Source of the DNA: Hydrogenophaga sp.
GTDB taxonomy: Bacteria > Pseudomonadota > Gammaproteobacteria > Burkholderiales > Burkholderiaceae_C
Length of the DNA: 64,000 nt
Direction: 5' to 3'
Assembly (NCBI RefSeq): GCF_036675665.1
Contig: NZ_JAKFEO010000015.1
Location: 70,889-134,888, forward strand
A program made the position numbers and the translations under genes. This document shows positions 41,676-64,000 of this stretch, piece by piece. The notes under the pieces are model-generated. The model made no database searches, was not told the origin of the DNA, and saw nothing but the letters and a program-made list of their open reading frames with translations. Position 1 is the stretch's first letter, and every line of letters begins with the position of its first letter.

Positions 41676-42152
41676 TCAGGCTGCAGATGGCTGGTTGCCC
41701 AGCTTGTCGGCCCACTGCTTCATCTTGTCCATGCCGGTCCAGTTGGCATCGATGAAGGTGATGGCGGCGGTCGGGCAGGCTTCGGCGCAGGCCGGCTCGC
41801 CACCGCACAGGTCGCACTTCTGGACCTTGCCGGTTTCCTGCACGTAGTTGATCGTGCCGAAGGGGCAGGCGATCGTGCAGACCTTGCAACCCACGCAGGT
41901 GGTCTCGTTCACCACCTTCGCACCCGTCATCCTGTCCACCGTGATCGCTTCCACCGGGCAGGCGTGCAGGCACCAGGCCTCGTCGCACTGTGTGCAGGTG
42001 TAAGGCACCTTCTTGCCGGTGTGGTGGAAGTCAAAAACCTTGATGCGCGACTTCGACGTGGCGTAGGTGCCGTAGTTCTCGAACGAACAGGCCATTTCGC
42101 ACTGCAGGCAGCCGGTGCATTTGTCGGGATTGATGTGTAGAACTTTTTGCAT
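41676..42152 (-). CDS. 4Fe-4S dicluster ferredoxin-like subunit (AorA-like)
   Basis: Lies inside ORF 41676..42209(-), with the start at MQKVLHINPDKCTGCLQCEMAC (cat 42150-42152). It has four CxxCxxCxxxCP-type motifs. Confidence 0.88.
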   Translation of the reverse strand: MQKVLHINPDKCTGCLQCEMACSFENYGTYATSKSRIKVFDFHHTGKKVPYTCTQCDEAWCLHACPVEAITVDRMTGAKVVNETTCVGCKVCTIACPFGTINYVQETGKVQKCDLCGGEPACAEACPTAAITFIDANWTGMDKMKQWADKLGNQPSAA

Positions 42153-42411: not shown

Positions 42412-43503
42412 ATGGAAAACCTCGACGTCACCGTCCTGCGCACGCTGCACGGCTGGCGCGCCCAGGGCCAGCGCGCCCTGCTCGCCACCGTGGTCCGCAC
42501 CTGGGGTTCGTCACCGCGCCCGGTGGGCTCGATCATGGCGCTGTGCGAGACCGGCGCGGTGGTCGGCTCGGTCTCGGGCGGCTGCATCGAGGACGACCTG
42601 ATCTACCGCTACAGCCGCGCGCACACAGCCCCCGCCGGCGCGGCACCCATGGCGGGCATCACCCACGAGATCCCCGACGGCGCGCCCGAGCGCGTGAAGT
42701 ACGGCGTGAGCGCCGACGAAGCGCACCGCTTCGGCCTGCCCTGCGGCGGCACGCTGGAGCTGGTGCTCGAATTCAACCCGGACGCGGCCTCGCTGCTCGC
42801 GCTGGTGCAGACCCTGGCCGACGGCCAGATGGTGCAGCGGCGCACCGAGATGGCCAGCGGCCGCGTGGAGTTGCGCGCGGTCACCGCGCCCTCGCCGCTG
42901 ATCGACGACAGCGAGGTGCTCGCCAACACCTTCGGCCCCGAGTACCGCATGCTGCTCATCGGTGCCGGCCAGCTCACCGAATACCTCGCCACCATGGCCC
43001 TGTTCAGCGGCTTCGCGGTCACCGTGTGCGACCCGCGCGAGGAATACCGCGCGGCCTGGCAGGTGAGCGGCGTCACCCTGCTCACCGAGATGCCCGACGA
43101 CGTGGTGCGCGACTTCAAGGTCGACCGCCGCAGCTGCGTGATCGCGCTCACCCACGACCCCAAGCTCGACGACCTGGCCCTGCTCGAGGCACTGGAAACC
43201 GAGGCCTTCTACGTGGGTGCCATCGGTTCGCGGCGCAACAACGAGGCGCGCCACGCCCGCATGATCGAGCACTTCGACCAGACGCCCGAGAGCCTGGTGC
43301 GGCTGCGCGGGCCGATCGGCATCTACATCGGCAGCAAGACCCCGCCCGAGATCGCGGTGAGCATCATGGCCGAGGTGCTGGCGGTGAAGAACGGCGTGCC
43401 GCTGCCGCGCGACATGGACGTGACCCACGCCAAAAACGCGCTGACAGACGTCACCGCCGAGCCGTCGGGCCCGGCCTGCTTTTCCCCCACCACCGCCCGG
43501 TGA
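42412..43503 (+). CDS. XdhC/CoxI-family molybdenum/tungsten-cofactor insertion chaperone
   Basis: A 363-aa ORF. The N-terminal XdhC_CoxI region is LATVVRTWGSSPRPVGSIMALCETGAVVGSVSGGCIEDD. The Rossmann-like C-terminal part is LLIGAGQLTEYLA. Confidence 0.85.
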   Translation: MENLDVTVLRTLHGWRAQGQRALLATVVRTWGSSPRPVGSIMALCETGAVVGSVSGGCIEDDLIYRYSRAHTAPAGAAPMAGITHEIPDGAPERVKYGVSADEAHRFGLPCGGTLELVLEFNPDAASLLALVQTLADGQMVQRRTEMASGRVELRAVTAPSPLIDDSEVLANTFGPEYRMLLIGAGQLTEYLATMALFSGFAVTVCDPREEYRAAWQVSGVTLLTEMPDDVVRDFKVDRRSCVIALTHDPKLDDLALLEALETEAFYVGAIGSRRNNEARHARMIEHFDQTPESLVRLRGPIGIYIGSKTPPEIAVSIMAEVLAVKNGVPLPRDMDVTHAKNALTDVTAEPSGPACFSPTTAR

Positions 43504-44192
43504 ACACCGCCGCCCTGCCACCGCCGCTGCGCACCGGCGTGCTCATCCTCGCCGCGGGCGCCGGCCGGCGCATGGGCGGGCGGGCCAAGTGTTTGCTGGA
43601 GGTGCAGGGCCACAGCCTGCTGGAGCGGCTGGCGCGTTCGGTGCGCAGCGTCGGGCTTCAAACGCCGGTGCTGGTGCTCGGCCACCACGCCACCGAGATC
43701 CAGGCACACCTGGCGCAATGGCCCGGGCACCTCAGCCCGCGCCAGGTGGTCAACCCCACGCCCGAAGACGATCCGGCCTCGTCGCTGCACCTGGGCCTGC
43801 ACGCGCTCGGCAGCGACGTGCAGGCGGTCATGGTGCTGCTGGCCGACCAACCCCTGATCGACGCCGACGACATCGGGGCCGTGCTTGGCGCGTTCCAGCG
43901 CCGCCCGGCCGGATGCCGGGTGTTGATGCCGATGGTGAACGGGGTGCCCGGCCATCCGGTGATGTTCGATGCCGCGGTGCGCGCCGAGCTGCTCGCAGCG
44001 CCCGGCACCAGCCTGCGGCAGTGGCGCGCCGCCCACCCACAAGCCACCCTGCCCTGGGTTGTGGACAACCCGCACCACACGCGCGACCTGGACACGCCCG
44101 AGGACCTTGTCGCCCTGGCCCGCGACACCGGCTGGGTCTGCCGCTGGCCGGTGGCCCCGACGGGGGTTAACACCGATCCCGTGAGCCGTTGA
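43500..44192 (+). CDS. MobA/MocA-like molybdenum-cofactor nucleotidyltransferase
   Basis: This is the C-terminal part of the tracked frame 42339..44192(+). The GTG at 43500 overlaps the xdhC stop (GTGA). GVLILAAGAGRRMGGRAKCLLEV is the signature LAAGxxxRMG loop. Confidence 0.75.
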   Translation: MNTAALPPPLRTGVLILAAGAGRRMGGRAKCLLEVQGHSLLERLARSVRSVGLQTPVLVLGHHATEIQAHLAQWPGHLSPRQVVNPTPEDDPASSLHLGLHALGSDVQAVMVLLADQPLIDADDIGAVLGAFQRRPAGCRVLMPMVNGVPGHPVMFDAAVRAELLAAPGTSLRQWRAAHPQATLPWVVDNPHHTRDLDTPEDLVALARDTGWVCRWPVAPTGVNTDPVSR

Positions 44193-44232
44193 TCCGCGTG
44201 CATGGGCGTTCAAACGCTGCTCTAATTCCTGG

Positions 44233-45351
44233 GTGAACTCCCACATGCAGTCACCCTTGACCCATCCGCACCGCCTGGCCTTGATCGAGCAGGCGCGCAA
44301 ATCGGTTCTGGACACGCGGGACCCGAGCACCCCGGTGCAACTCTCGCCGTGGATCGACCGTTCGTGGCGGCGCTGCCTGGGCATGGGCTTCAACCCGCAC
44401 CAGCCGGTCGCCTTCGATGCGGTCACCCACAGCGCCGTGCGCAACGCCATCGAGGCCAACCAGCCTCTGCTGCGGGCGGCGGCACCGGTGATCCAGTCGC
44501 TCACGCGGGCCATGGCCAACACGCGCTACTTCGCCATCCTCACCGACGCCAGCGGCCTGGTGATCGACGTCAATGGCCCGGTGGACCGCCACAACCCGCA
44601 GGCGTCGACCATCGCGCGCGTGGGCGTGGACTTGTCCGAACGCGCCGTGGGCACCACCGCCATCGGCGCCACGCTGGCCGAGCTGCAGCCGGTGTGGCTG
44701 CACCGCGGCGAACACTTCTTTGACGCCACCAGTGTCTACAGCTGCGCCGGTGCGCCCATCTGGGGGCCCGACGGTCAGTGCGTGGGCATGCTCGATCTCA
44801 CCGGTGTGAACGTGGTGGAACAACCCGCCCTCAAGCACCTCGTCACGCAGTCGGCACGCAGCATCGAGAACGCGCTGGCGCTGGCCCGACCCCACCGGCT
44901 GCTGCTGTGCCTCAGCTGGCCGGGCAGCCTGCCGGGCGACGCCAGCGAAGGCCTGGTCTGCGTGGACGCCGACGGGCAGATCACCGCGCTCAACCGCTCG
45001 GCGGCCGACATGCTCGGCATCGTGGCCGGCATGGCGCCCGGCCACTGCAGCGACGTGTTTGCCGTGCCGGTGGAAACGCTGTTCGACGCCGCGCACCTGC
45101 AGCGCGGCCCGCTCGACGTGCCGCTGTGGTCGGGCCTGCGTCTGAGCGTGCTGGCCCAGCTCAACCAGGGCGGCGAACGCGGCCCGGTGCATGGCGCCAG
45201 CCATGGCCTGCCGCTCAAGGACGTGGAGACCGCCATGATCCGCAAGGCGGTGGACGACGCGCGTGGCAACGTCAAGGAAGCCGCCCGCGCGCTGGGCATC
45301 AGCCGCGCCACGGTGTACCGCAAGCTCGGCGCCCAGCGCGACCGGGGCTGA
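44233..45351 (+). CDS. AcoR-like GAF-PAS-HTH(Fis) regulator lacking the sigma-54 AAA+ module
   Basis: A 372-aa ORF (GTG 44233 or ATG 44245). Its N-terminal half aligns by eye with the 49296..51491 activator (GTTAIGATLAE...CAGAPIWGPDGQCVGMLDLTG versus GTNAIGTALTE...CSASPIFDPYGQVIGALDVTG). The C-terminus GNVKEAARALGISRATVYRKL is the Fis-type HTH. No Walker A (GETGTGK) or GAFTGA motif is present. Confidence 0.8.
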   Translation: MNSHMQSPLTHPHRLALIEQARKSVLDTRDPSTPVQLSPWIDRSWRRCLGMGFNPHQPVAFDAVTHSAVRNAIEANQPLLRAAAPVIQSLTRAMANTRYFAILTDASGLVIDVNGPVDRHNPQASTIARVGVDLSERAVGTTAIGATLAELQPVWLHRGEHFFDATSVYSCAGAPIWGPDGQCVGMLDLTGVNVVEQPALKHLVTQSARSIENALALARPHRLLLCLSWPGSLPGDASEGLVCVDADGQITALNRSAADMLGIVAGMAPGHCSDVFAVPVETLFDAAHLQRGPLDVPLWSGLRLSVLAQLNQGGERGPVHGASHGLPLKDVETAMIRKAVDDARGNVKEAARALGISRATVYRKLGAQRDRG

Positions 45352-49003: not shown

Positions 49004-49151
49004 CGCGAGGTCTCCAGGGTGAAAAGGCGGGTTCACCGGGGCTGGTCAGCAAGAAGCAGGCCTTCCACCAAAAACCGGACAGCCACCACCCACGTGTTCC
49101 AAATTGCATCAGTTGCACAGTCCGTCGTCGCGACGCGTGACACACCCTCTT

Positions 49152-49166
49152 GCTCAACTGGTGCCT
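49152..49166 (-). promoter_or_regulatory. sigma-54-like promoter candidate upstream of cytochrome c / SBP genes
   Basis: The reverse complement is AGGCACCAGTTGAGC (GG-N10-GC spacing correct, with GGCAC at -24 and GAGC at -12). It lies about 150 nt upstream of the ATG at 49003. Confidence 0.4.
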
Positions 49167-49295
49167 TCTGGACCACCTTTTCACCGGAAGCAGCAGGCCG
49201 GCAAATTGCTACCCAGGCACGGGCACATCCGGCCCGGGTTGTTGCACACCGGGATTACCAGTGTTGTTTCCCGGGACAGTTATGAAGAAAATTGC

Positions 49296-51491
<2,196 letters not shown>

Positions 51492-51492
51492 G

Positions 51493-52491
51493 TCATTGCC
51501 CCGGTCCACGCTCCATCCACACCGGCTCCAGTTCGCGCCACGCGCGCTGCACATTGAAGCCCTGGCGCTGCGCGTAGCCCGCCCAGTTGGCGTACGCAGG
51601 CATGGCGATCAAAGCGCTCTCGCCCGCATGACGACCTTCGTCCATCGCCGCCAGAACGCGCGCGCGCAGCTCGGCGAGGTATGCGCGGGTCGCCACCACC
51701 GCCGGCGGCAGCGCCCCGTCGTCCCAGGTGCTGGACACCGTGTTGCCGATCACATGCCTCGGCCGCAACGCAGCGATGCGGTCCAGCGCCAACAACCACG
51801 CGTCCACCCCACCCTGCGCCAGCTCGGGCAGGCGCTGGTTCACCACCAGCCCGCCGGCCCACACCACGCGGCTGGCCTCGTCCCACAGCACCAGATCGCT
51901 CTCGGTGTGGCCCGGCGCCGGTAGCAGCACACGCAAGGTGTGCGGGCCCACGCGCAGCAGCTCGCCGGACATCAACACGCGGCTGGGCAGCACGATGCCC
52001 GTGCCCGCCATCGCACCCTGACCAGCGCGCTCACCCAGGCTGGCCAGGCAGGCCGGACAACGCTGCCGCATCGCACTGCGCGTGCCTTCGCTGGACAGGA
52101 TCTCCAGCTGGCCCGCCGCCAGCCGGTCGGCAAACGCCGAGTTCGCCAGCACGTTCTCGGCGTGGGCGTGGGTATTGACCACCCAGCGCACCTGCGCGCC
52201 GAAGCGGCAGGCCAGCGAGTCGCGCACACGCAGGCCGTGGCGGTGGCTCGGGCCGGGGTCGATCACCAGGGCTTCACCGCCCGAGACCACCACCGAGGTG
52301 GGCACCACATGACCGGCATTGGCGGCCGATACCTCACCCACCACGTCGGGCGGCCACACCCACACGCCGGGCACCACCGCTTGCCACGGCACCGCGTGGG
52401 CGGCGCTGCAGTCGGGCCTGGGTGCGGTGGAGGCACAGCCCATCAACAGCGCGAGCAAGCCCGCCCCCAACGCGCGGCGCAGGCCGTTCAT
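51493..52491 (-). CDS. metallo-beta-lactamase-fold lipoprotein ('quinoprotein relay system zinc metallohydrolase'-like, member 1)
   Basis: This is the C-terminal 332 aa of tracked ORF 51493..53442(-), with the start at MNGLRRALGAGLLALLMGCAS (lipobox LMGC, cat 52489-52491). Its motif VNTHAHAEN stands in place of the canonical HxHxDH. Confidence 0.8.
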   Translation of the reverse strand: MNGLRRALGAGLLALLMGCASTAPRPDCSAAHAVPWQAVVPGVWVWPPDVVGEVSAANAGHVVPTSVVVSGGEALVIDPGPSHRHGLRVRDSLACRFGAQVRWVVNTHAHAENVLANSAFADRLAAGQLEILSSEGTRSAMRQRCPACLASLGERAGQGAMAGTGIVLPSRVLMSGELLRVGPHTLRVLLPAPGHTESDLVLWDEASRVVWAGGLVVNQRLPELAQGGVDAWLLALDRIAALRPRHVIGNTVSSTWDDGALPPAVVATRAYLAELRARVLAAMDEGRHAGESALIAMPAYANWAGYAQRQGFNVQRAWRELEPVWMERGPGQ

Positions 52492-53582
52492 GCGAGCGCC
52501 CTGCGCACGCTCTTGCGCAGGGCGCTCAGCATGTCGGGCTCGTGGCCCAGATGGCCGCTGTGCGGCTCCACATGCACCACCGCCCCGCCCGCGGCGCGGC
52601 CCAGCGCGGCCCAGCGCCGGCTGTTGGCGGGGGGACAGATCGCGTCGAAGCGGCCGTGCACCCAGTCCACCGGCAGGCCGTGTCGAGCGGCCTGCAACAC
52701 GCCTCGGTCGAGCTGGCCAGAGCGCACGAAACCGCCGTGGCGCAGGTAGTGCGCCTGGATGCGGAATTTGCCCAGCGCGTTGCGGTCGGCGCGGGTTTTC
52801 CCGGGTCTGTTCAGCCGGGCGATGGCACGCTTCTCGGCCTTGCGCAGGCTCGCCCATTCGCGCCGGATCGCCGTCGCCAGGCGCGGTGTGCCCAGCGCCG
52901 CATGCAACAGGCTGCGCCGCTGGCTGCGCGCGGCCGATGCCGTTTCCAGCAATCCCCAGCCGCGCGCGGCGCGCAGCGATGCCACACCGGGTGTCCCACT
53001 TTGAATCAGTTGTGTCAGGCGCTGCAACGCAACAGACAACACGGCACCGGGAAAAACCGGCCACAGTGCGCCCCAGCCGAGCGAGTGCCGCACGCGCGAC
53101 GAGGGCAACAGCAAGCCGCCGAGCTCTCGCGCGCTGAGCGCAAACGCACCGCGCAACACCAGGCGTTGCACACGCAACGGGTGCGCCAGCGTGTAGGCCA
53201 AGGCCACCACCGTGCCCCACGAACCGGCCAGCACCGACCAGCGCTCCAGCCCCAGGTGTTCGCGCAGCGCTTCCATGTCGGCCACCAGCGCGGCCGTGTG
53301 GTTGCCGGCCGTGCGGCCCTTCGGGAGCGAGGCGCCGCAGCCGCGTTGATCGGGCGCCACCACCCGTTGCCGCGACAGGTCGAACGGCCTCAGCATGCCG
53401 GGCTGGCAACTGCTGCCAGGACCACCGTGCAGCAGCAGCCACGACTCACCCTCTGGCGCCCCCACAGCGCGCCAGGCCATGCGGTGCAGGCCGCCCAGCG
53501 GCAGGTGTTGCGGACGTGGCCACGCGGGGCTGGCCACCGGTGGGGGTGGCACAGTTTTCGTGGCATCGATATTGCTATTCAT
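52488..53582 (-). CDS. alpha/beta hydrolase, proline-iminopeptidase-like (S33)
   Basis: Lies inside ORF 52488..53663(-), with the start at MNSNIDATK (cat 53580-53582). It has HGGPGSS (oxyanion), the nucleophile elbow LAGSWGT, and a C-terminal SGHLGH. The ATGA overlap with the downstream MBL gene suggests coupling. Confidence 0.8.
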   Translation of the reverse strand: MNSNIDATKTVPPPPVASPAWPRPQHLPLGGLHRMAWRAVGAPEGESWLLLHGGPGSSCQPGMLRPFDLSRQRVVAPDQRGCGASLPKGRTAGNHTAALVADMEALREHLGLERWSVLAGSWGTVVALAYTLAHPLRVQRLVLRGAFALSARELGGLLLPSSRVRHSLGWGALWPVFPGAVLSVALQRLTQLIQSGTPGVASLRAARGWGLLETASAARSQRRSLLHAALGTPRLATAIRREWASLRKAEKRAIARLNRPGKTRADRNALGKFRIQAHYLRHGGFVRSGQLDRGVLQAARHGLPVDWVHGRFDAICPPANSRRWAALGRAAGGAVVHVEPHSGHLGHEPDMLSALRKSVRRALA

Positions 53583-53657: not shown

Positions 53658-53732
53658 ATGCAATGGACGACCCCCGCCTTCACCGACCTTCGCTTCGGCT
53701 TTGAAATCACGATGTACATCGCCAACCGCTGA
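53658..53732 (+). CDS. pqqA: pyrroloquinoline quinone precursor peptide PqqA
   Basis: A 24-aa ORF, MQWTTPAFTDLRFGFEITMYIANR, with the conserved E-x3-Y (E16, Y20). GGAG lies 7 nt upstream. It is hidden at the end of the spurious tracked ORF 52422..53732(+). Confidence 0.92.
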   Translation: MQWTTPAFTDLRFGFEITMYIANR

Positions 53733-53751
53733 TCTGCATCACTCGGTTCGG

Positions 53752-55469: not shown

Positions 55470-55476
55470 ATGAAAG

Positions 55477-55559
55477 CCCCCCTGCGCCGCTTCGCGTCTT
55501 CCCCCCGCAGGGGGACCACACCTGCGGCCTGGCAAAGCCAGTTCCGTGGTGTGTGCTGG
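55477..55559 (+). repeat. double-hairpin intergenic repeat, copy B (inside pqq operon)
   Basis: cccccctgcgccgcttcgcgtcttCCCCCCgcaGGGGGaccacaCCTGCGGCCTGGCaaaGCCAGttCCGTGGtgtgtgctgg. It fills most of the unusual 153-nt gap between pqqC and pqqD. Confidence 0.7.
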
Positions 55560-55622
55560 TCTTGAGACCTCTTCCTGCCCGCTGTATCTGCCGTTTGCCA
55601 GCACTTTGACTTGAGCACCTTC

Positions 55623-55874
55623 ATGAATCATCCCAAGCTCTCGCGCCGTTTCCGCCTGCAGTACGAGGAAGCGCAGACGCGCTGGGTGCTGCTCTACCCC
55701 GAGGGCATGGTGCAGCTCAACGACAGCGCGGCCGAGATCCTCCAGCGCTGCGACGGTGAGCGCAGCGTGGCTGAGATTGTGAGCGAGCTGGAAGCTGCGT
55801 TCTCGGTTCAAGGCCTCACGCCGCAGGTGGAATCTTTGCTGGAAGAAGGAGGTCGCCGTGGCTGGATCGACTGA
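55623..55874 (+). CDS. pqqD: PQQ biosynthesis peptide chaperone PqqD
   Basis: ORF 55611..55874(+), where the tracked start is a TTG. The likelier start is the ATG at 55623, giving MNHPKLSRRFRLQYEEAQTRWVLLYPEGMVQLNDSAAEIL. Confidence 0.85.
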   Translation: MNHPKLSRRFRLQYEEAQTRWVLLYPEGMVQLNDSAAEILQRCDGERSVAEIVSELEAAFSVQGLTPQVESLLEEGGRRGWID

Positions 55875-57027
55875 GTTCGCGCCGGTCTCCGAAGCGCTCG
55901 CCATGCTGGCCGCGAAAACGCACCCGGCCGGCCCACCGCTGTGGCTGCTGGCCGAGCTCACCTACCAGTGCCCGCTGCATTGCGTGTTTTGCTACAACCC
56001 CACGCAACACGCGCACATCAGGAACGAGTTGACCACCGCGCAGTGGGTCGACGTGATGCGCCAGGCGCGCAAGCTCGGTGCCGCGCAGCTCGGCTTCTCG
56101 GGCGGTGAGCCGCTGGTGCGCGACGACCTCGAAGAACTGGTGCAGGAAGCGCACGCGCTGGGCTACTACACCAACCTCATCACCTCCGGCGTGGGCCTGA
56201 ACGAAGCGCGTGCACAGCGTTTGAAGGACGCCGGGCTGGACCACATCCAGCTTTCGTTCCAGGACAGCACGCGCGAGCTCAACGACTTCCTGAGCCACAC
56301 GCGCACCTTCGAGCTCAAGCAGAAGGTGGCACGCCTGATCAAGGCGCACGACTGGCCGATGGTGATGAACTGCGTGCTGCACCGGCACAACCTGCCGCAC
56401 GTGGGCGAGATCATCGAGATGGCGCTCGCGCTCGATGCCGAATACCTCGAACTCGCCAACACGCAGTACTACGGCTGGGCCTGGATCAACCGGGACCACC
56501 TCATGCCCACGCACGAAGCGCTGATCGAGGCCGAGGCCGTGGTCAACCGCTACCGCGAAACCATCGGCCAGCGCTGCAAGCTGCTGTTCGTGGTGCCTGA
56601 CTATTTCGAACAGCGCCCCAAGGCCTGCATGAACGGCTGGGGCTCGGTGTTCCTCTCGGTCGCGCCCGACGGCGTGGCCATGCCCTGCCACAACGCGCGC
56701 GACCTGCCCGGCCTGAAGCTGCCCAACGTGCGCGACATGGCCTTGGCCGACATCTGGCGGAAGAGCCAGGCCTTCAACGCCTTCCGTGGCGAAGACTGGA
56801 TGAAGCCGCCCTGCCGCACCTGCGACGAGCGCCACAAGGACTTTGGCGGCTGCCACTGCCAGGCCTTCCTGATCACCGGCGACGCCACCCAGGCCGACCC
56901 GGTGTGCAGCAAATCACCGCACCACGACAAGGTGGTGCAACTGGTGAAACAGGCACCCGCGCAGCGCCACATTCCCATCGTGTTTCGCGGCGACACCGCG
57001 TCGCGCGCATTGCACCCGCAGGCCTGA
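55858..57027 (+). CDS. pqqE: PQQ biosynthesis radical-SAM enzyme PqqE
   Basis: A 389-aa ORF (GTG start, 17-nt overlap with pqqD). It has the radical-SAM motif CPLHCVFCYN and a C-terminal SPASM Cys cluster. Confidence 0.93.
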   Translation: MAGSTEFAPVSEALAMLAAKTHPAGPPLWLLAELTYQCPLHCVFCYNPTQHAHIRNELTTAQWVDVMRQARKLGAAQLGFSGGEPLVRDDLEELVQEAHALGYYTNLITSGVGLNEARAQRLKDAGLDHIQLSFQDSTRELNDFLSHTRTFELKQKVARLIKAHDWPMVMNCVLHRHNLPHVGEIIEMALALDAEYLELANTQYYGWAWINRDHLMPTHEALIEAEAVVNRYRETIGQRCKLLFVVPDYFEQRPKACMNGWGSVFLSVAPDGVAMPCHNARDLPGLKLPNVRDMALADIWRKSQAFNAFRGEDWMKPPCRTCDERHKDFGGCHCQAFLITGDATQADPVCSKSPHHDKVVQLVKQAPAQRHIPIVFRGDTASRALHPQA

Positions 57028-57102
57028 GCGCCTGGGCATTCGTGCCCTTCGTGGCTTGCCACCCACACATGGCCTGGGCTCGGCGCCGCATGCATGCGCC
57101 AC

Positions 57103-57116
57103 GGCACGCGCATCGC
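57103..57116 (+). promoter_or_regulatory. sigma-54-like promoter candidate upstream of the orphan 573-aa gene
   Basis: GGCACGCGCATCGC corresponds to cGGCACG-N4-TCGC against the consensus TGGCACG-N4-TTGC, with correct GG-N10-GC spacing. It lies 38 nt upstream of the ATG at 57154, leaving a short leader with AAGGAG. Confidence 0.4.
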
Positions 57117-57153
57117 TCCCAAACTGAAAACCCCTCAATTCCAAGGAGTTTTC

Positions 57154-58875
57154 ATGATCGACGGCGCAGAACATTTTCACTACCTCGGCATGGCCCCGCG
57201 ACACCACAGCGTGCTGATGGTGTTTCAGGAAGGTGTGCTCATCCTCGACAGGGACCAGCCGGGCTGGGGCTGCATGTCGCCATTGACACTGGATCGGTTG
57301 ATGTCCGACTCGCCCGCCCATTCACCCTCCGGCTCCCGCTCCGGCAACGGGTCCTCGCGAAGCGACAGCGATGTCATCGACAGCCTCTCCGAAAGCGAGT
57401 TCAGCGCGGACAGCTCCGCCAGCACTTCCTCCTCACGCTCGGGTTCGGCATCGCCGGCCGCATCGCGGCCGGGCAGCCCGGCAACACCCCGCAACGGCCC
57501 GGACGCGCGACCCCATCCAGGGTGGTCCCCGTCCGGGGCGCTTCTGGGCTGGCACCCGTGCGAGGCCGTGGTGCACGTCGGTCCGGTGACCCTCAGGGCC
57601 ATCAACGCCTACAAAGCGCTCCAGGGCCCCGACGAACTTCAGGCCTTCGTGGCGCAGCTCAAGGGCGGCCACTGGAACCCGCAGCCGGTGGGCAGCCCGG
57701 GCGATGCCACGATGGTGGCCTTGCAGATGTTCGGCCAACTGCAGGTGATGCTCTGGGACGGCACCTGGCATGCCGCGGGCAACGTCGAGCACCAGCAACA
57801 AGCCATGACCGCCCAGCACGCCTGCCAGCTGGTGGCGAACTCGGTGGTGGCCCAGGTCTGCAGCCTGGCTCTGGTGCCGCACGCCGAACGCAGCGATTAC
57901 CTCGCCCACGTGCAGTCGGGCGCGATCTCGGTGATGGTCTTCGACCAGGGCCTGCTGGTGCGCTCGCACCCCGACCCCGCGCTGGCGGGCTGGCACGATC
58001 TCGACGACACCACCCGCGGCGCCTTCGTGTCACCAGGCGACGCCAACATGATCGAACTGGCCTGCCGCACGAACTACCCGCGCGAGAACAGCATGTTCCA
58101 GACCTTCTTCATCGGGATGATGGACGTGATATCCGACGAAGGTCCCTTCGTGGCGGCGATCTTTTCGCACAAGACGCGGCGCTGGTCTCACATGCGCCTG
58201 GACATGCCGCATGTGCAGTTGCCGAACGACCCCACAGGCCCCACGCCGGCGGCCGTGATCCAGACCTTGCGGCAGGCACGCCCCGCACCGCTGCACGATC
58301 TGCAATCCTCCAGCGGACCCGTGCGGCTTTCCAGCGGCGCCTGGCAGGTGCCGCTCTTCCTCGGCGCGATCCAGTGCATCGATGCCAGTGTGGACGTGCC
58401 AGGGTTGATCGGCACCCATTGGCACGACACCTTGCAGCCGGTGATCGAACGGCAGTTGGTTGCGCATCACGCACAAGAGGCGGCCTGGCTGGCCAGTGGC
58501 GTGATCAAACAGCCGATCGACCGCCTGATCGACCTCACGCGACGCGACCTGGCCCTGCGCCGGGACGAGGTGTGGGTGATGTGGCCCGTGGAACTGCTCG
58601 ACGATCTCCTGAAGACGCTGGCCCCGCAGGACAAGACACGCGTGATCCACGCCCCCAAGGCCGCCGACGTGGAACTCGCGCTGGGGCAGAAGGCCTGCAC
58701 CTTGTTCGTCTTCCAGACCGCCGGGCAGCCCAGCCAGTCCGTAGCGCTGGCGCAAGGTAACCGATGCTGGAGCGGTCGCGAGCACTTCAGCCTGAAGGAG
58801 CTGAAAGCGCGCGTGACCAAGTCCCTGGCCGGCGGTCCGGGCGAGCATCTGGTGGCGCTGGCCTACGTGGTGTAG
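57154..58875 (+). CDS. orphan hypothetical protein, 573 aa, with Ser-rich disordered segment
   Basis: Lies inside ORF 57094..58875(+). The ATG at 57154 is preceded by AAGGAG 7 nt upstream. Composition is balanced (D, E, K, F, I, M and W present), unlike the competing frames. Residues ~50-120 read SDSPAHSPSGSRSGNGSSRSDSDVIDSLSESEFSADSSASTSSSRSGSASPAASRPGSPATP. No family was recognised. Confidence 0.7.
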   Translation: MIDGAEHFHYLGMAPRHHSVLMVFQEGVLILDRDQPGWGCMSPLTLDRLMSDSPAHSPSGSRSGNGSSRSDSDVIDSLSESEFSADSSASTSSSRSGSASPAASRPGSPATPRNGPDARPHPGWSPSGALLGWHPCEAVVHVGPVTLRAINAYKALQGPDELQAFVAQLKGGHWNPQPVGSPGDATMVALQMFGQLQVMLWDGTWHAAGNVEHQQQAMTAQHACQLVANSVVAQVCSLALVPHAERSDYLAHVQSGAISVMVFDQGLLVRSHPDPALAGWHDLDDTTRGAFVSPGDANMIELACRTNYPRENSMFQTFFIGMMDVISDEGPFVAAIFSHKTRRWSHMRLDMPHVQLPNDPTGPTPAAVIQTLRQARPAPLHDLQSSSGPVRLSSGAWQVPLFLGAIQCIDASVDVPGLIGTHWHDTLQPVIERQLVAHHAQEAAWLASGVIKQPIDRLIDLTRRDLALRRDEVWVMWPVELLDDLLKTLAPQDKTRVIHAPKAADVELALGQKACTLFVFQTAGQPSQSVALAQGNRCWSGREHFSLKELKARVTKSLAGGPGEHLVALAYVV

Positions 58876-58890
58876 GGCCTGAAGGAAACG

Positions 58891-58916
58891 CATCAGCCGC
58901 CCGAGGGCGGCTGATG
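58891..58916. terminator. perfect 11-bp hairpin between convergent genes (bidirectional terminator candidate, no T run)
   Basis: CATCAGCCGCC-cgag-GGCGGCTGATG lies between the stops at 58875 (+) and 58945 (-). Confidence 0.5.
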
Positions 58917-58944
58917 GCATGGGGGACACGGATGCGCAGGTGGG

Positions 58945-59517
58945 TCAGCGCTTGCCGCCACCACCACCGTTTCCACCCCCGTTGCCGCCACCACCGCCGT
59001 TGCCCCCTCCCTTGCCACCGCCTTTGCCACCGCCTTTGCCAGCTCCCAGGCCGCCCTGAGCACCCACGGACAGGCCGGGACCGATGGACGCCGACGCCAC
59101 CGTCGAGCGGCTCGTGGCGGCGGGGGAGGACTTGGTCGTCTTCTGCGACTTCGCCGCGGCAGCAGCGCGCGCGTCGTCCGCGTTCTTTGCCTGGTTGGCG
59201 TCGCTCACCACATCACCCAGGCGCAAGCCCAGCGAATTGGCAATCGCACCCCAGCCCATGCCGCTGTCGCGCAGACCCTGCACGCTGCTGGTTGCCGTGC
59301 CCAGCTGGGCGCTGGTGGGGTTGGTGATGCCTTGCTTGGCGAGGTCGGCCTTGGCGATGTGGGTCGCAAAGTCCTGCTTTGGCGCGGCCGCGGTCGTGGT
59401 GGTCGGCGTGGTGGTGGTCACCGTCACGCCAACGGTCGTCTGCGCGAATGCTCCGGTCGCCGCGAACAACGCGACGCACACGCCCGTCTTGAGCAAAAGG
59501 GGATGGGCAAATTTCAT
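58945..59517 (-). CDS. secreted hypothetical protein with Thr-rich N-terminal segment and poly-Gly (GGGK/GGGN) C-terminal tail
   Basis: Lies inside ORF 58945..59550(-), with the start at MKFAHPLLLKTGVCVALFAATGAFAQT (signal peptide, cat 59515-59517). It shows TVGVTVTTTTPTTTTAAAP and ends GAGKGGGKGGGKGGGNGGGGGNGGGNGGGGGKR. Confidence 0.7.
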   Translation of the reverse strand: MKFAHPLLLKTGVCVALFAATGAFAQTTVGVTVTTTTPTTTTAAAPKQDFATHIAKADLAKQGITNPTSAQLGTATSSVQGLRDSGMGWGAIANSLGLRLGDVVSDANQAKNADDARAAAAAKSQKTTKSSPAATSRSTVASASIGPGLSVGAQGGLGAGKGGGKGGGKGGGNGGGGGNGGGNGGGGGKR

Positions 59518-59682
59518 GAACGGCTCCTGAGTTGTTGTGTCACGGCCCATGCTAAGGCGGCCATGTACCTGGGAGCACGCTGAATGGTTACCAGCGGTAG
59601 CTTTGAGCCACCAGAAGTCAACCGCGTGTGTGCCAGCGCACGCTCGTCATGCCACACCAGCGCCTTCGCTCGGTGCGCGCCG

Positions 59683-60003
59683 TCATGGCTTGACGGTCAG
59701 CACCCAGGTGGAGAGGGTCTTGAGGTCGTCCGTGCTCAGGCTCGAGTGCGCGGGCATGGGAATGCGACCCCACTTGCCCTTGGAGCCGTTTTGAATCGAT
59801 TGCGCGAGCGACGCGGCGGCGTCTTTCTCGGTCGCGTATTTGTCGGCGATGGCGGCAAAGGCCGGGCCCACCACTTTTTCGCCATTGGCATGGCATGAGT
59901 AACAACCGCTGGCCTTGGCCAGGTCGGGAGCGCCGGCCAGATCGGCTTGCGCGAAGGCGCTGGCGCTGGTGATCAAGGTCGCGATGAAGAAGGTCGAGCG
60001 CAT
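59683..60003 (-). CDS. small soluble class I cytochrome c (c551/c552-like)
   Basis: Lies inside ORF 59683..60063(-), with the start at MRSTFFIATLITSASAFA (cat 60001-60003). It has the heme motif CYSCH and the distal Met region WGRIPMP. Confidence 0.85.
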   Translation of the reverse strand: MRSTFFIATLITSASAFAQADLAGAPDLAKASGCYSCHANGEKVVGPAFAAIADKYATEKDAAASLAQSIQNGSKGKWGRIPMPAHSSLSTDDLKTLSTWVLTVKP

Positions 60004-60088: not shown

Positions 60089-61816
60089 TCACTTCATCAG
60101 CTTGAAGGTCCAGACGGAGCCGCCCTGTTCGAGGAAGTTGACCTTCTTGGCCACTTCACCGCCCCACAGCGGCACGGCACCGCCCCAGCCGGAGACCACG
60201 CTCACGTACTGCTCGCCACCTTCGGTCCAGGTGATGGGAGGGGCCACCACGCCAGAGCCGGTCTGGAACTGCCACACCACCGTGCCTGTCTTGGCGTCGG
60301 CGGCCTTGAGGTAACCCTCGGGCGTGCCCCAGAACACCAGGTCGCCGGCGGTCAGCACACCACCCCACAGCGGCGCGCTGTTCTTGACTTCCCAGGCCAC
60401 CTTGCCGGTCTTGGGATCGATCGCGCGCAGCGAGCCGATGTGGTCGTCGAACAGCGGCTTGATGGTGAAGCCCGCACCCAGGAAGGCAGCGCCCTTCTTG
60501 TAGGTGATGGGCTCGTTCCAGATCTCCATGCCCCATTCGTTGGTGGGCACGTAGAACAGGCCGGTGCGCGGGCTGTAGGCCATGGGCATCTGGTTCTTGC
60601 CACCCAGGAAGCCGGGCGCGGAGAACACCGACTTGCCCTTGGCGCCGTCGCCGCCGGCAGCGGCTGCGGTCGGGTCGCCCGGGCGGTTGGTGTCGTCGAA
60701 GTTCGGCCGGCCGGTCTTCAGATCGATGCTGGTGGCCCAGGTCACCTTCTTCACGAACGGGAAGGCGTTGACCAGCTTGCCGGTGGTGGCGTCGTTCACA
60801 TAGAAGAAGCCGTTGCGGTCCGCCTTGGCGCCCATGCGCTTGCCGTCCATGTCGAAGGTGATGAACTCGTTCACACCGTCGTAGTCCCAGCCGTCGTTCG
60901 GCGTGTTCTGGTAGTGCCACACGATCTTGCCGGTCTTGGGATCGATCGCCACGGTGGAGGCGGAGTACAGGTTGTCGCCCTTGCGCACGTGGCTGTTCCA
61001 CGGGCCGGGGTTGCCGGTGCCGAAGTAGGCCAGGCCGGTCTTCGGATCGTAGGTGCCGCCCAGCCATGGGCTGGAGCCGCCGGTTTTCCAGGTGTCACCG
61101 GGCCAGCTGGCGTTGGTGGTGCCGGTGATGCCGTTTTCCTTGCCGTCCTTGAAGCCCATGTGGCCTTCGACCACGGGGCGCGACCAGACCATCTTGCCGG
61201 TGCGCGGATCGCGCGCTTCCACACGGCCGACCACGCCGAACTCACCACCGGAGACACCGGTCATGAGCAGACCTTGTGCGATCAGCGGTGCGGCGGTGTA
61301 GCTGTAGCCGGCGGCGTAGTCGTCGATCTTCTCGCGCCACACCACCTTGCCGGTGTCCTGGTCCAGCGCCACCAGTTGTGCGTCGAGCGTGCCGAAGATC
61401 ACCAGGTTGTCGTAGAGCGCGGCACCGCGGTTGATCACGTCGCAGCACGGCATGATGCCTTCGGGCAGGCGGTGCTCGTACTTCCAGAGCTTCTGGCCGG
61501 TCTTGGTGTCCACCGCGTAGATGCGCGAGTAGGAGGCCGTCACGAACATCTTGCCCTTGTTGACCAGCGGCTGCGACTGCTGGCCGCGCTGCTTCTCGCC
61601 ACCAAACGACATGGACCACACCGGCACCAGCTTGCTGATGTTGCGGGCGGTGATGCCGTTGAGATCCGAGTGGCGCTGACCCTGGGTACCCAGGCCCCAG
61701 CTCAACACGTTCTCGGGCGACTTGGCGTCGTCGGCAATCATGGCGTCGGTGACGCCCTGGGCGCCTGCGTGGGCCGTGGCGGCCATGATCATGAGGCTCA
61801 GTAGGGTGCGTTTCAC
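60089..61816 (-). CDS. PQQ-dependent alcohol dehydrogenase, type I quinoprotein, with lanthanide-type active-site signature
   Basis: Lies inside ORF 60089..61990(-). The GTG at 61816 is preceded by GGAGA and gives [21 protein letters not shown] (signal peptide). It has the vicinal disulfide PCCDV, W-motif propeller repeats, and [11 protein letters not shown] (D311-Y-D313; codons 60878-60886). Confidence 0.93.
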
Positions 61817-61927
61817 AGTGTGTCTCCTGCTCGTTCGTGGGTTGGATGGCTGCTGCCGTGCAACATGCGCGGCCGCTTGTGATGCCCTGCGCGACAGGTC
61901 AGTCGTGGGCTGCACGCGACTTGAATG

Positions 61928-61942
61928 GCAACATCTGTGCCA
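61928..61942 (-). promoter_or_regulatory. sigma-54 (-24/-12) promoter of the PQQ-ADH operon
   Basis: The reverse complement is TGGCACAGATGTTGC, an exact TGGCAC-N5-TTGC. It lies about 112 nt upstream of the GTG start at 61816. Confidence 0.75.
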
Positions 61943-62104
61943 GGGTTCGTGGTGCACCGCGCAGCGGTTTTTCCAAGGGTTTTCGAGCACCTGTTGCCGC
62001 GAAAAACGGGGGCCACTGCGCCATGCCGCCGGTGGCGGCTGTCACGTTGTGGCGAGAGTGTTCAAAAACGAATCACCGGCCGCCCGGCCTGCAACAGGCT
62101 GCGT

Positions 62105-63070
62105 TCAACGCCGTGTCGCGGGGCCGCTGAGCACCTGCTGCTCGTAGCGCGGGTACCACTGCGTGATGCTGCGGTGCAGCTCGGCCGGCTGGGCGGCCCA
62201 GGCCTGGAATCGCGCGGGCACCGGCAGGCGCAGCACCTCGCTCAGATCGAGCCCGCGCTCGGCGCTCTCGCGCATGTGCGTGGTGAGCCAGCGCAGCCAG
62301 TCGCGCGTCTGGTCCACGCCGCCCTGGCCGCTGTGCAGCGGACCGTGGCTGGGCACCACCAGCCGGATGTTCTCGGTGGTGATCCACCGCGAGAGCTTCG
62401 CCAGGCTGGCCTGCCACGCGTCAAAGTCGGCGTGCGGCGTGGTGGGCACGCGCTCGGCAAACACCAGGCCGCCGGCAAACAGAACGCCGGTGGTGTGGTC
62501 GATCAACACGAGGTCGTCGCTGGTGTGGCCGCTCAGGCGGCGCAGCTCCAGCTGGTGACTCCCGAGTTGAAACACGCCGGCCTCGACGGGTTGGCGCGAG
62601 GGGGTGGACTCGGTGCCCTTCATCCAGTCGCCACACAGGCGGTAGAGGTTGTCGGCGTAGGCGCGACCCTCGGCCTGCATGCCGCCGATGCTGCCGGGCA
62701 GCGCCTGCGTGGGGCGGTCGGCCCAGGCCTGGTTGCCAAAGAAGTGGTCGGGGTGCAGGTTGAGGCTGAGCACGCGCACCACCGGCTCGCGCGTGACGCG
62801 CTCGATGGCGCGGCGCTGCTGCTCGCCGTAGCCGCGCGATGGGCCGGTGTTGACCACCACCACGCCCGCGCCGGTGGCGATGAAGGCGGTGTTGATGATG
62901 TTGCAGCCGTTGGCGCGCGAGAAGTCGTCCACCGCGCCTTCCATGACCCAGGTGCGCTCGGCGATCTGGCGTGGGCGCAGGTCGTGGTCGAGGCGGACCA
63001 TGTCGGGCACGGGCTGCGCCATCGCGGCGCTGGCCCATGCCGCGGCCAGCCACGGCAGCAGGCTTCTCAA
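62105..63070 (-). CDS. metallo-beta-lactamase-fold periplasmic protein ('quinoprotein relay system zinc metallohydrolase'-like, member 2)
   Basis: This is the C-terminal part of tracked ORF 62105..63970(-). The TTG at 63070 overlaps the upstream stop (TTGA) and gives LRSLLPWLAAAWASAAMAQP (signal peptide). Its motif LNLHPDHF stands in place of HxHxDH. Confidence 0.8.
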   Translation of the reverse strand: MRSLLPWLAAAWASAAMAQPVPDMVRLDHDLRPRQIAERTWVMEGAVDDFSRANGCNIINTAFIATGAGVVVVNTGPSRGYGEQQRRAIERVTREPVVRVLSLNLHPDHFFGNQAWADRPTQALPGSIGGMQAEGRAYADNLYRLCGDWMKGTESTPSRQPVEAGVFQLGSHQLELRRLSGHTSDDLVLIDHTTGVLFAGGLVFAERVPTTPHADFDAWQASLAKLSRWITTENIRLVVPSHGPLHSGQGGVDQTRDWLRWLTTHMRESAERGLDLSEVLRLPVPARFQAWAAQPAELHRSITQWYPRYEQQVLSGPATRR

Positions 63071-63864
63071 GCGCTCACCTCGGCGTCGATGCGGTTGCCG
63101 TTGTTGTCGCGCCCCAGCAGCCGGAAGCCGCTGCCGGTCTGCGGCGGCAGCTCGACCGTGATGAGCGGGTTTTCCGACACCGGTTCGTGCAGCGCCAGGC
63201 GCCACCAGGGCACGCCCGCGCCGTCCACCAGTTGCAGCTGTTCGATGTAGAAGGCCGGGATGCCGGCGACCAGGCCGGTGTCCATGGGGTGCATCACGCG
63301 CACGCGCAGGCGGCGGCTGCCTTCGAGCACGTTGTTGAAGAAACGCGCCTGCACCTGGTTGAGCGTGCGGCTCCACGAACCATCGGCGCGCGTGGCGCCC
63401 GGCACCGTGCAGCCACCACCGGCCGCCTGCACCCAGGTGCTGCCCACGTGCCAGGCGCCGTCGCGCGTCTGCACCAGGGCGCGCACGGGCGAGGCCTGCT
63501 CCATGCGGATGCGAAACGCCAGCATGGGCAAGGCCTTGAGTGGTTCGAACTCCAGCACCTCGCGCACCGGGTTGCGGTCCACCACCACCTGGATGCGCGC
63601 CACGCCACCGCCGGTGTTGCCGAGCGCACGCGCGTCCACCAGCAGCGGCACGTTCATCGCATCGTCGGCAAAGGTCGGGCCGTTCACCACCACGGCGCTG
63701 GAGAAGCGCATGGGCGCGTCGCCCAGGTACTGCTTGCGCAGGCCGGGCCACTGCATGGAGCCCAGCGGGTCGCCGCCGGTGGGGTCGTCGGTGGCCCACA
63801 GCGCAGTGCTCGCCGCGCCCAGCGCAGCGCCCAGGAACAGGCGGCGGGTGTTGTCTTGTGACAT
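63067..63864 (-). CDS. quinoprotein-dehydrogenase-associated SoxYZ-like fused carrier protein
   Basis: A 265-aa ORF with the Tat signal MSQDNTRRLFLGAALGAAS. The SoxY-like half ends in WVQAAGGGCTVPG (Cys152, codon 63409-63411). A SoxZ-like Ig-fold half follows. Confidence 0.75.
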   Translation of the reverse strand: MSQDNTRRLFLGAALGAASTALWATDDPTGGDPLGSMQWPGLRKQYLGDAPMRFSSAVVVNGPTFADDAMNVPLLVDARALGNTGGGVARIQVVVDRNPVREVLEFEPLKALPMLAFRIRMEQASPVRALVQTRDGAWHVGSTWVQAAGGGCTVPGATRADGSWSRTLNQVQARFFNNVLEGSRRLRVRVMHPMDTGLVAGIPAFYIEQLQLVDGAGVPWWRLALHEPVSENPLITVELPPQTGSGFRLLGRDNNGNRIDAEVSA

Positions 63865-63873
63865 GAAGAACTT

Positions 63874-64000
63874 TCAGGAACCTTTTTGGCGGATCCAGCC
63901 GCGCTGCGGGTCGTAGCCCCACAGCGCCAGCACAAAGAAGGCGATGCTGCACACCACCACCACCGCCCACGACGTGGCGTTGAACTGCCCATACATCGCA
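63874..64000 (-). CDS. 3' end of a membrane-protein gene (or a 40-aa ORF from the ATG at 63996); runs off the right edge
   Basis: The reverse complement reads (A)MYGQFNATSWAVVVVCSIAFFVLALWGYDPQRGWIRQKGS-stop, with one hydrophobic helix. The frame stays open to the window edge, and identity cannot be determined. Confidence 0.35.
   Translation of the reverse strand, partial: AMYGQFNATSWAVVVVCSIAFFVLALWGYDPQRGWIRQKGS

Follow-up and report, generated by a model that had tools for sequence, protein, structure and literature searches.

A rare orphan gene with a conserved leader beside the pqq operon of Hydrogenophaga, probably resident rather than a passenger of the metabolic island

Accessory genes that follow pqqE in pyrroloquinoline quinone (PQQ) operons encode the M16 peptidases PqqF and PqqG, and leader hairpins that occlude a Shine–Dalgarno (SD) sequence are known from RNA thermometers of the fourU and ROSE types and from simple translational operators. 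Here we analyze an orphan gene in a 64,000-nt stretch of the Hydrogenophaga sp. contig NZ_JAKFEO010000015.1 (assembly GCF_036675665.1, positions 70,889 to 134,888 of the forward strand), hereafter the window. The gene lies directly 3' of pqqE on the same strand, as pqqF and pqqG may; unlike theirs, its product has neither an M16 domain (Pfam, NCBIfam) nor an HxxEH motif, and its linkage to pqq is absent outside this lineage. The comparisons presented below suggest that the orphan protein is not a component of PQQ biosynthesis or of the PQQ-dependent alcohol dehydrogenase (ADH) system, and its gene has no conserved sigma-54 promoter. Our overall reading, whose chances of being right we judge to be even, is that of a rare cytoplasmic protein of three parts with a leader of its own, playing a signalling or adaptor role rather than serving the pqq/ADH system.

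The open reading frame (ORF) that starts at the ATG at 57154 is a genuine gene (Table 1). An AAGGAG ribosome-binding site, graded strong, precedes the ATG by 7 nt, and the stop codon occupies 58873–58875. In this frame, G+C content at third codon positions (GC3) is 0.76–0.94 from 57150 to 58875, in a window of 64.7% G+C overall, and second positions have 32–58% G+C outside a Ser-rich loop; because of this profile, the pattern is that of a coding plus strand. Full-length homologues are known at 49–85% identity, and every homologue begins with MIDGA or MIEGA at the equivalent ATG. An in-frame ATG at 57094 was rejected as the start, given this shared N-terminus and the out-of-frame character of the conservation upstream. 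Compared with the three closest genomes (L010–L012), the ratio of nonsynonymous to synonymous substitution rates (dN/dS) is 0.31–0.40 for the whole gene, 0.63–0.87 for the Ser-rich loop and 0.25–0.28 for residues 391–573. These values therefore indicate purifying but relaxed selection on the protein, with the loop close to neutral. Among RNA runs, one metatranscriptome, from soil, yielded one contig covering part of the coding sequence (196 nt, about 95% identical, spanning 58234–58429), which may be taken as weak evidence for transcription of a close relative of the gene. The N-terminus is acidic, His-rich and predicted to form beta-strands, with no signal peptide seen there, and the most hydrophobic 19-residue segment (residues 223–241, Kyte–Doolittle 1.71) falls at the end of the first domain, where it aligns with residues of about 365–385 in the second. 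The product is a soluble cytoplasmic protein. A preliminary description of this DNA had proposed a coding ORF with an AAGGAG site and without a signal peptide, and GC3, dN/dS, homologues and the predicted N-terminal strands all agree with it.

Neither its sequence nor its predicted structure allows the family to be classified with present libraries. Pfam gave zero matches to the orphan protein alone and no weak match in common to all 13 diverse family members; NCBIfam gave two matches only, far under the cut-offs (E 0.14 and 0.42); PADLOC and PHROGs gave none. Searches of PDB sequence profiles with the whole protein, the repeated A domain and the C domain returned noise, the best match being MglB (E 0.83). 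A merged profile of both A copies found nothing at E ≤ 0.01 in a collection of 5.8 billion sequences, a weak null in that even family members went unscored. The preliminary description had been unable to assign a family, and that statement stands after exhaustive profile searches and structure comparison, including those of the C-terminal half, from which no well-known family emerged.

The family is very rare, occurring in Hydrogenophaga and close relatives. A word-indexed search of the 5.8 billion sequences retrieved 11 proteins, as did an exhaustive HMMER scan of 1.84 billion representatives; the latter added three full-length members at 38–43% identity and two distant members, P0016 and P0020, at 24–26%. 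Among 185,579 species genomes there are 4 loci, carried by the cultured Hydrogenophaga sp. Root209 (orthologue 85% identical), a Hydrogenophaga metagenome-assembled genome (MAG), an unclassified Pseudomonadota MAG and a MAG labelled Thiobacillus. A metagenome contig collection supplied 1 further locus, and the DNA runs with the gene are soil, groundwater, runoff, aquifer and rhizosphere metagenomes. No homologue was found by tblastn in plasmid and phage collections. Tandem paralogue pairs occur in two separate lineages, L015 (2–967 and 1047–2666, the latter being P0016 with its paralogue upstream) and L019–L021 (in L021, 234–1994 and 2014–3717, encoding P0014 and P0013 with a 20-nt gap).

Comparison of the protein with itself points to an internal duplication. 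Once residues 45–125 are left out, the first domain (A1) aligns with residues 244–385 of the second (A2) by hhalign over 137 columns (96%, E 3e-9). Both copies share the motif hhVFxxGhLh, a short connection and LxGWH(P/D), which reads LxGWHP in the A1/A2 alignment, and a joint alignment with MAFFT, using the two copies of 11 members, shows the residues F, G, G and W to be invariant. A1 and A2 are thus tandem copies of a previously undescribed alpha/beta domain of ~140 aa. Residues 1–40 (MIDGAEHFxYLG...VFQEGxLIL) are nearly invariant, are predicted to form beta-strands and are homologous to residues 244–271. The Ser-rich loop sits within A1 between the beta-hairpin VLMVFQEGVLILD and LLGWHP, at the point where A2 carries a short 'DPAL' connection. 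It contains 32% Ser over residues 45–125 (39% over residues 52–112) and has a predicted local distance difference test score (pLDDT) of 23–31 in the full-length AlphaFold2 (AF2) model; the alignment segment that corresponds to it spans 76–100 aa among close members, against 39 aa for P0016 and 15 aa for P0020. This confirms the Ser-rich N-proximal segment of the preliminary description. Its partition of the protein into a 50-aa N-terminal module, a linker and a 450-aa C-terminal region has to be replaced, with residues 1–44 and 126–240 forming one domain. The third part, the C domain, is the best conserved and carries the motifs WHD, QPIDxLIDLMRRD and PEVWVMWPV. H424 and D465 are the only polar residues invariant family-wide; the other invariant positions are Gly, Trp, Phe, Leu, Ala, Met, Ile, Val and Pro. 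A resemblance by eye of the last ~60 residues (TLFVFQT-QSVALAQ-RCWSG-...helix) to a third A-like unit was unsupported by hhalign.

AF2 modeling of the full-length protein (11 sequences) gave a mean pLDDT of 53.7, with residues 240–380 alone confident. The model of residues 236–573 (17 sequences; me7caa584b6db) reached a mean pLDDT of 88.5 and a predicted template modeling score of 0.72, with pLDDT mostly 83–93 for the blocks of A2, two of which drop to 63 and 70, and mostly 84–96 for the C domain. A2 is predicted to comprise a five-strand beta-meander, two helices, three strands and one helix, and the C domain a helical part (residues 400–490) followed by a beta-alpha-beta4-alpha-beta unit. 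Foldseek comparison with the PDB (two runs) and BFVD yielded no match at E ≤ 1e-3. Like the PH-like and PTB folds of Rtt106 (tandem PH, 3tvv) and AIDA1 (2m38), the A domain is predicted as an antiparallel meander followed by a helix, in tandem; it differs in having three extra strands plus helices and no bacterial PH (bPH) match in Pfam, and the matches themselves are poor (E 0.055–1.0, template modeling (TM) scores of about 0.2–0.3).

Low-scoring matches to papain-like folds recur, which suggests a similar arrangement of a helix on an antiparallel sheet, and they raise the alternative that the protein is a divergent, possibly degenerate Cys/His hydrolase of this type, or an enzyme of unrecognizably remote fold. 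In the PDB these matches include Josephin (3o65, probability 0.72), a toxin/immunity pair (9l5u, 0.5–0.6), CHBP/Cif (3eit) and the USP-like TssM; in BFVD, a phage C39 peptidase (0.98) and a PPPDE protein. C408, H424 and D465 are invariant among close members, which speaks for this alternative. Yet the matches overall have probabilities of 0.4–0.98 with E ≥ 0.05 and TM ≤ 0.48, P0016 and P0020 have Leu or Ala in place of C408, and C408 lies inside the helix 400–412 rather than at a helix start and only 16 residues before H424, the wrong place for a nucleophile. No peptidase profile matches. We regard this alternative as very unlikely; no credible catalytic constellation appears to be conserved in the orphan family.

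The best Foldseek match is the type III secretion protein YopQ/YopK of Yersinia (PDB 8brf), with which an alpha/beta stretch of ~140–150 residues superposes (TM 0.46–0.48 normalized to YopQ, probability 0.96–0.99). The likeness is non-significant (E 0.012–0.028, root-mean-square deviation 8.5–8.7 Å, identity 9%). Sequence profiles show no relation between the two, no context of type III secretion was seen, and the orphan protein is four times larger, with a duplicated domain. In the literature on tungsten/molybdenum aldehyde oxidoreductase (AOR) and on YopQ, neither the orphan gene nor a regulator of the cluster is mentioned. The top match, at E 0.012 and probability 0.99, nonetheless bears on whether the protein might belong to a conflict system, as a toxin, immunity protein or anti-phage component, or be a secreted effector, as the preliminary description had speculated. 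The very patchy distribution, the dN/dS of 0.3–0.4, the variable neighbours, the tandem paralogues and a HipA-like kinase gene upstream in L009 are in keeping with such a role. Set against it are the lack of PADLOC or PHROG matches and of any copy on plasmids or phages, the lack of a constant partner gene, and surroundings of metabolic and metal-transport genes rather than a defence island. The first ~40 residues, better conserved than the rest of the N-terminal region and part of a folded duplicated domain, are unlike a secretion signal, and no secretion apparatus or chaperone genes are seen among the annotated ORFs of the window (35.6–64 kb) or in the retrieved loci. We consider a conflict or effector function highly improbable, and the effector proposal is not borne out.

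The surroundings of the gene in other lineages bear on its relation to the pqq/ADH island. In the window, pqqE ends at 57027 and is followed, after a 126-nt gap, by the orphan gene in the same orientation as pqqABCDE. The PQQ-dependent ADH gene lies at 60089–61990 (minus strand), with a secreted Gly/Thr-rich gene (58945–59550, minus strand) between the two. The preliminary description had left open whether orthologues always stand beside pqq or ADH genes; pqqE is upstream of the orphan gene only in the window and in L010–L012. Elsewhere a regulator with GAF and HTH_8 domains recurs. In L003 and L014 its orthologues, 78–85% identical, immediately precede the target. In L003 (P0009), a mobA-like gene and the regulator precede the target, and a 4HB-HAMP-MCP chemoreceptor gene in two ORFs and the Gly-rich gene follow it. 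L014 (P0012, 43% identical) has aorEDCBA (minus strand) and the regulator upstream, with modE, modABC and a tup-like transporter downstream. In L001 (P0005) the regulator orthologue is 4 kb upstream, the order being xdhC, mobA, regulator, modE-modABC and a small GAF gene, with a DUF3597 gene (minus strand) downstream, and in L013 a 30%-identical GAF-HTH_8 paralogue is directly upstream, beside a lipoprotein gene as in L007, with the contig end downstream. The regulator was presumably the ancestral upstream neighbour of the orphan gene.

Junction mapping by blastn is consistent with this arrangement. Window positions 43455–45327 match L003 423–2293, and 57044–57281 match L003 2340–2583, so that the junctions are 47 nt apart in L003 versus about 11.7 kb in the window. 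The alcohol-oxidation block that L003 lacks contains genes for an aldehyde dehydrogenase (ALDH, minus strand), a solute-binding protein (SBP, minus strand), an AcoR-like sigma-54 activator (plus strand) and an MBL-fold protein (minus strand), and pqqABCDE (plus strand). At the corresponding junction, L001 carries a different insert, modE-modABC-GAF. The end of pqqE (CAC CCG CAG GCC TGA) is homologous to intergenic sequence in L007, which places the right-hand junction at about 57012. The simplest history would be ancestral adjacency of regulator and target, with independent insertions between them. On this comparison the orphan gene and its leader appear to be the residents and the ALDH-to-pqqE block (about 45.35–57.01 kb) the insertion, and the linkage to pqq/ADH would be secondary and lineage-specific. 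The description of the gene as a passenger in a metabolic island is thereby reversed by comparison with L003, L014, L013 and L001.

The earlier proposal was that the gene may belong, with the ADH, to the regulon of the AcoR-like activator, by way of a sigma-54-like site GGCACG-N4-TCGC 38 nt upstream of its start. The string is present, but its significance is not upheld. The site at 57102–57117, CGGCACGCGCATCGCT, has 2 mismatches to TGGCACG-N4-TTGCW, and 20 matches within 2 mismatches occur in the window versus 19.9 ± 4.9 expected from shuffles. When ten orthologous leaders are aligned, L011, L013, L001, L003 and L007 lack its GG and GC dinucleotides, while neighbouring leader blocks are invariant. 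Because the match is at chance level and the site unconserved, a sigma-54 promoter is unsupported, and direct membership of the activator regulon is therefore unsupported as well. A conserved CTGGGC-N6-CCGCA block was also considered and rejected by eye as a sigma-54 site, its GG being lost in L007 and L009. A much better −24/−12 element, GTGGCATCGATATTGCT, lies at 53560–53576 (plus strand), about 85 nt 5' of the canonical pqqA ORF (53659–53733, plus strand), and a second good one, TGGCACAGATGTTGCC, at 61927–61942 (minus strand) upstream of the PQQ-ADH gene. These two elements are the likely targets of the AcoR-like activator, which lies within ORF 49104–51491 and has GAF, AAA+ sigma-54-interaction and HTH_8 domains.

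A scan for sigma-70 promoters found 0 sites in the leader. The terminator scan found no terminator-like site between pqqE and the orphan gene, and read-through from the pqq operon is therefore conceivable in this lineage; the gene is probably monocistronic. An alternative account would have the gene belong to the alcohol-oxidation regulon of the AcoR-like activator, through the GGCACG-N4-TCGC site or through read-through from pqqA, and serve the PQQ-ADH, for example in maturation or in cofactor or lanthanide handling. The orientation, the short gap without a terminator, the good element upstream of pqqA and the preservation of the arrangement in three further Hydrogenophaga-like genomes (L010–L012) speak for it. 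Against this, the proposed site is at chance level and unconserved, all other lineages are without pqq or ADH genes beside the orphan gene, the leader is conserved whatever lies upstream, and the protein has no M16 (PqqF-like) or other peptidase domain. We judge this account unlikely.

In every lineage the gene is accompanied by the leader of ~140 nt. Its aligned columns average 77% identity, as against only 49–64% for the proteins of the loci compared, and blastn matches to it start at 57016–57051 in L001, L003, L007, L009 and L013. In this genome the start of the leader supplies the last codons and stop of pqqE. Three blocks are invariant, CGTGGC-N7-CCACAC, AAAyTGAAAAC and GGAGTTTTCATGATCGA; within the first, all 10 leaders aligned share GTGGC and CCAC.C without change. 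This inverted repeat may act as an operator. It has one zero-mismatch copy in the window and 19 two-mismatch matches versus 19.4 expected, with no further copy beyond chance, for example in the aor promoter region.

The second element of the leader is a predicted RNA hairpin that pairs TGAAAACCCC (57125–57134; family form TGAAAACyCC) with GGAGTTTTCA (57145–57154) and covers the SD sequence and the first base of the ATG. It is the minimum free energy or centroid structure in 7 of 8 leaders folded (−9.4 to −15.6 kcal/mol), and across 11 leaders 94.5% of its alignment cells are paired. Covariation comprises three changes compatible with wobble pairing and a single compensatory one, from A-U to G-C in L024; only 45 of 500 shuffles did as well. 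The conservation of the hairpin is suggestive. RNAalifold analysis of the whole leader also gave stems further upstream, without covariation support (covariation term +1.06). As in known SD-occluding hairpins, the stem would pair the SD sequence (GGAG) and the spacer to the start codon, in 10 of 11 leaders. It differs from fourU and ROSE elements in being a predicted 10-bp stem of mixed A-U and G-C pairs, without an Rfam match (nothing at E ≤ 1 over 56900–59700).

A chemoreceptor gene with 4HB, HAMP and MCP domains follows the target on the same strand in 5 lineages: L003 (4350–6067), L007 (3795–4679), L009 (3029–3904), L024/25 (L024, 2100–2900) and L026 (2057–2926). The L003 copy, broken into two ORFs (92 + 452 aa), is possibly a pseudogene; in the lineage of the window the chemoreceptor gene is missing downstream. 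L009 combines it with a HipA-like gene upstream. L007, L020 and L022, and probably L026, share a three-gene operon upstream, with varied genes downstream. The operon (L007, 1–1764; L020, 1–1571; L022, 3–1394; L013, 54–329) encodes two membrane proteins, one partial and one of 174 aa, and a lipoprotein of 227–257 aa, with no Pfam match and no homologue in the window.

Several neighbours concern metals, in keeping with the alternative that the protein binds, stores or chaperones molybdenum or tungsten (or a lanthanide) through its His residues and its acidic Ser/Asp loop. His makes up 4.7% of the protein, with H134, H272, H281 and H424 conserved, and neighbours in various lineages include modE-modABC, the tup-like ABC transporter, xdhC, mobA and tungsten/molybdenum aorABC, together with a CDF exporter with MerR and a possible TerC-like membrane gene (by eye from the translation). 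No metal-binding motif or family match was found, however, the Ser/Asp loop evolves almost neutrally and is missing from distant members, and the neighbours vary by lineage and may mark a variable chromosomal region. A role in metal homeostasis has a slim chance at best.

The target gene is also fast-evolving. The regulators of the window, L001, L003 and L014 are 78–85% identical, and the targets adjacent to these regulators are 43–61% identical to that of the window. Compared with L010–L012, the target and the Gly-rich gene mostly show 80–94% nucleotide identity per 500-nt interval and the flanks mostly 91–99%.

Returning to the signalling or adaptor reading, we propose a non-enzymatic binding or adaptor function in a signalling context, under control at two levels by the palindromic element and the hairpin; we put this forward tentatively and with more doubt than belief. 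The signalling context is suggested because the GAF-HTH_8 regulator stands upstream and the chemoreceptor downstream, and the non-enzymatic character because the family conserves no catalytic constellation. Binding of a ligand or partner would fall to the two A domains, via the conserved GWH(P/D) loop. Transcription would be controlled through CGTGGC-N7-CCACAC, perhaps bound by the GAF-HTH_8 regulator, and translation by the hairpin occluding the SD sequence. A bolder version, which we think quite unlikely, sees a new domain family, possibly of new fold, acting in Comamonadaceae as a cytoplasmic sensor or adaptor between the GAF-HTH_8 regulator and the chemoreceptor, gated by operator and hairpin and tuned by a modifiable (e.g., phosphorylatable) Ser-rich loop.

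Several observations weigh against the signalling or adaptor reading. The role is drawn from neighbours and from missing catalytic motifs rather than from homology, and the weak recurring matches to papain-like folds make an enzymatic ancestry conceivable. The regulator is absent on the short contigs of L007, L009, L020 and L022, so its linkage is not universal, and such linkage could reflect shared ancestry rather than function. The regulator also evolves much more slowly than the target, which would be unusual for tight physical partners. On the side of expression, no promoter for the gene was located, the window offers no second copy of the operator-like element from which to define a regulon, and the hairpin has modest support, with z-scores of −0.6 to −3.1 besides the single compensatory change and the shuffle count given above.

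Table 1 Features of the orphan gene and its surroundings, in window coordinates
Feature	Coordinates	Strand	Basis
GAF-HTH_8 (AcoR/MimR-like) regulator, no AAA+ sigma-54 domain	44233..45351	+	Pfam; orthologues near target
~11.7-kb block absent from L003	45352..57013	.	blastn junctions
Conserved leader	57014..57153	+	leader alignment, blastn
Operator-like element CGTGGC-N7-CCACAC (inverted repeat GTGG...CCAC)	57050..57068	+	leader alignment
Sigma-54-like site GGCACG-N4-TCGC of the preliminary description	57103..57116	+	string present; unsupported as promoter
Predicted RNA hairpin	57125..57154	+	RNAalifold, per-leader folding
Orphan coding sequence, 573 aa plus stop	57154..58875	+	translation, frame-specific GC3, homologues, dN/dS
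Domain copy A1 (residues 1–240), Ser-rich loop inside	57154..57873	+	hhalign to 244–385
Ser/Asp/Pro-rich disordered loop (residues 45–125)	57286..57528	+	Ser content, pLDDT, dN/dS
Domain copy A2 (residues 241–392)	57874..58329	+	AF2 model
C-terminal alpha/beta domain (residues 393–573)	58330..58872	+	alignments, AF2, dN/dS
Likely shared terminator, 11-bp GC-rich hairpin CATCAGCCGCC-loop-GGCGGCTGATG	58891..58916	.	terminator scan

Other features of the window are recorded here. The likely terminator hairpin lies between the convergent orphan gene and Gly-rich gene. The latter encodes a secreted protein of 201 aa without a family match, made up of a signal peptide, a stretch rich in Thr and a C-terminal tail rich in Gly, Asn and Lys; its orthologues are 3' of the target in L003 and L023, and together the two genes form the most divergent stretch versus L010 and L011 (about 80–82% identity, 58500–59499). 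Upstream of the regulator is an aorABC-type tungsten/molybdenum aldehyde oxidoreductase cluster on the minus strand (aorC 38335–39675, aorB 39757–41604, aorA 41676–42152), followed on the plus strand by xdhC (42412–43503), a mobA-like gene (to 44192) and then the regulator. Between pqqC and pqqD, an insertion of ~155 nt (55470–55625) carries within it an inverted repeat (ccccctgcg...cgcaggggg) and resembles a small repeat or an element similar to a miniature inverted-repeat transposable element (MITE); it is absent in L010–L012, where pqqC and pqqD appear to abut or overlap. Two large MBL-fold proteins (about 620–650 aa), both with long N-terminal regions without Pfam matches, are encoded on the minus strand, one between the activator gene and pqqA (51493–53442) and one beside the PQQ-ADH gene (62105–63970).

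Genus-level orphans are common, no unusual biology is demonstrated here, and expectations should be modest. For annotation, the gene should not be treated or studied as a member of the PQQ/ADH system or of the sigma-54 activator regulon; the true sigma-54 promoter candidates of the island are those upstream of pqqA and of the ADH gene. The family offers a clean example of a genus-level orphan, in which a confident model without a recognizable neighbour is joined to a duplication, a near-neutral loop and a leader of its own, and the orthologue in the cultured Hydrogenophaga sp. Root209 makes it accessible to experiment.

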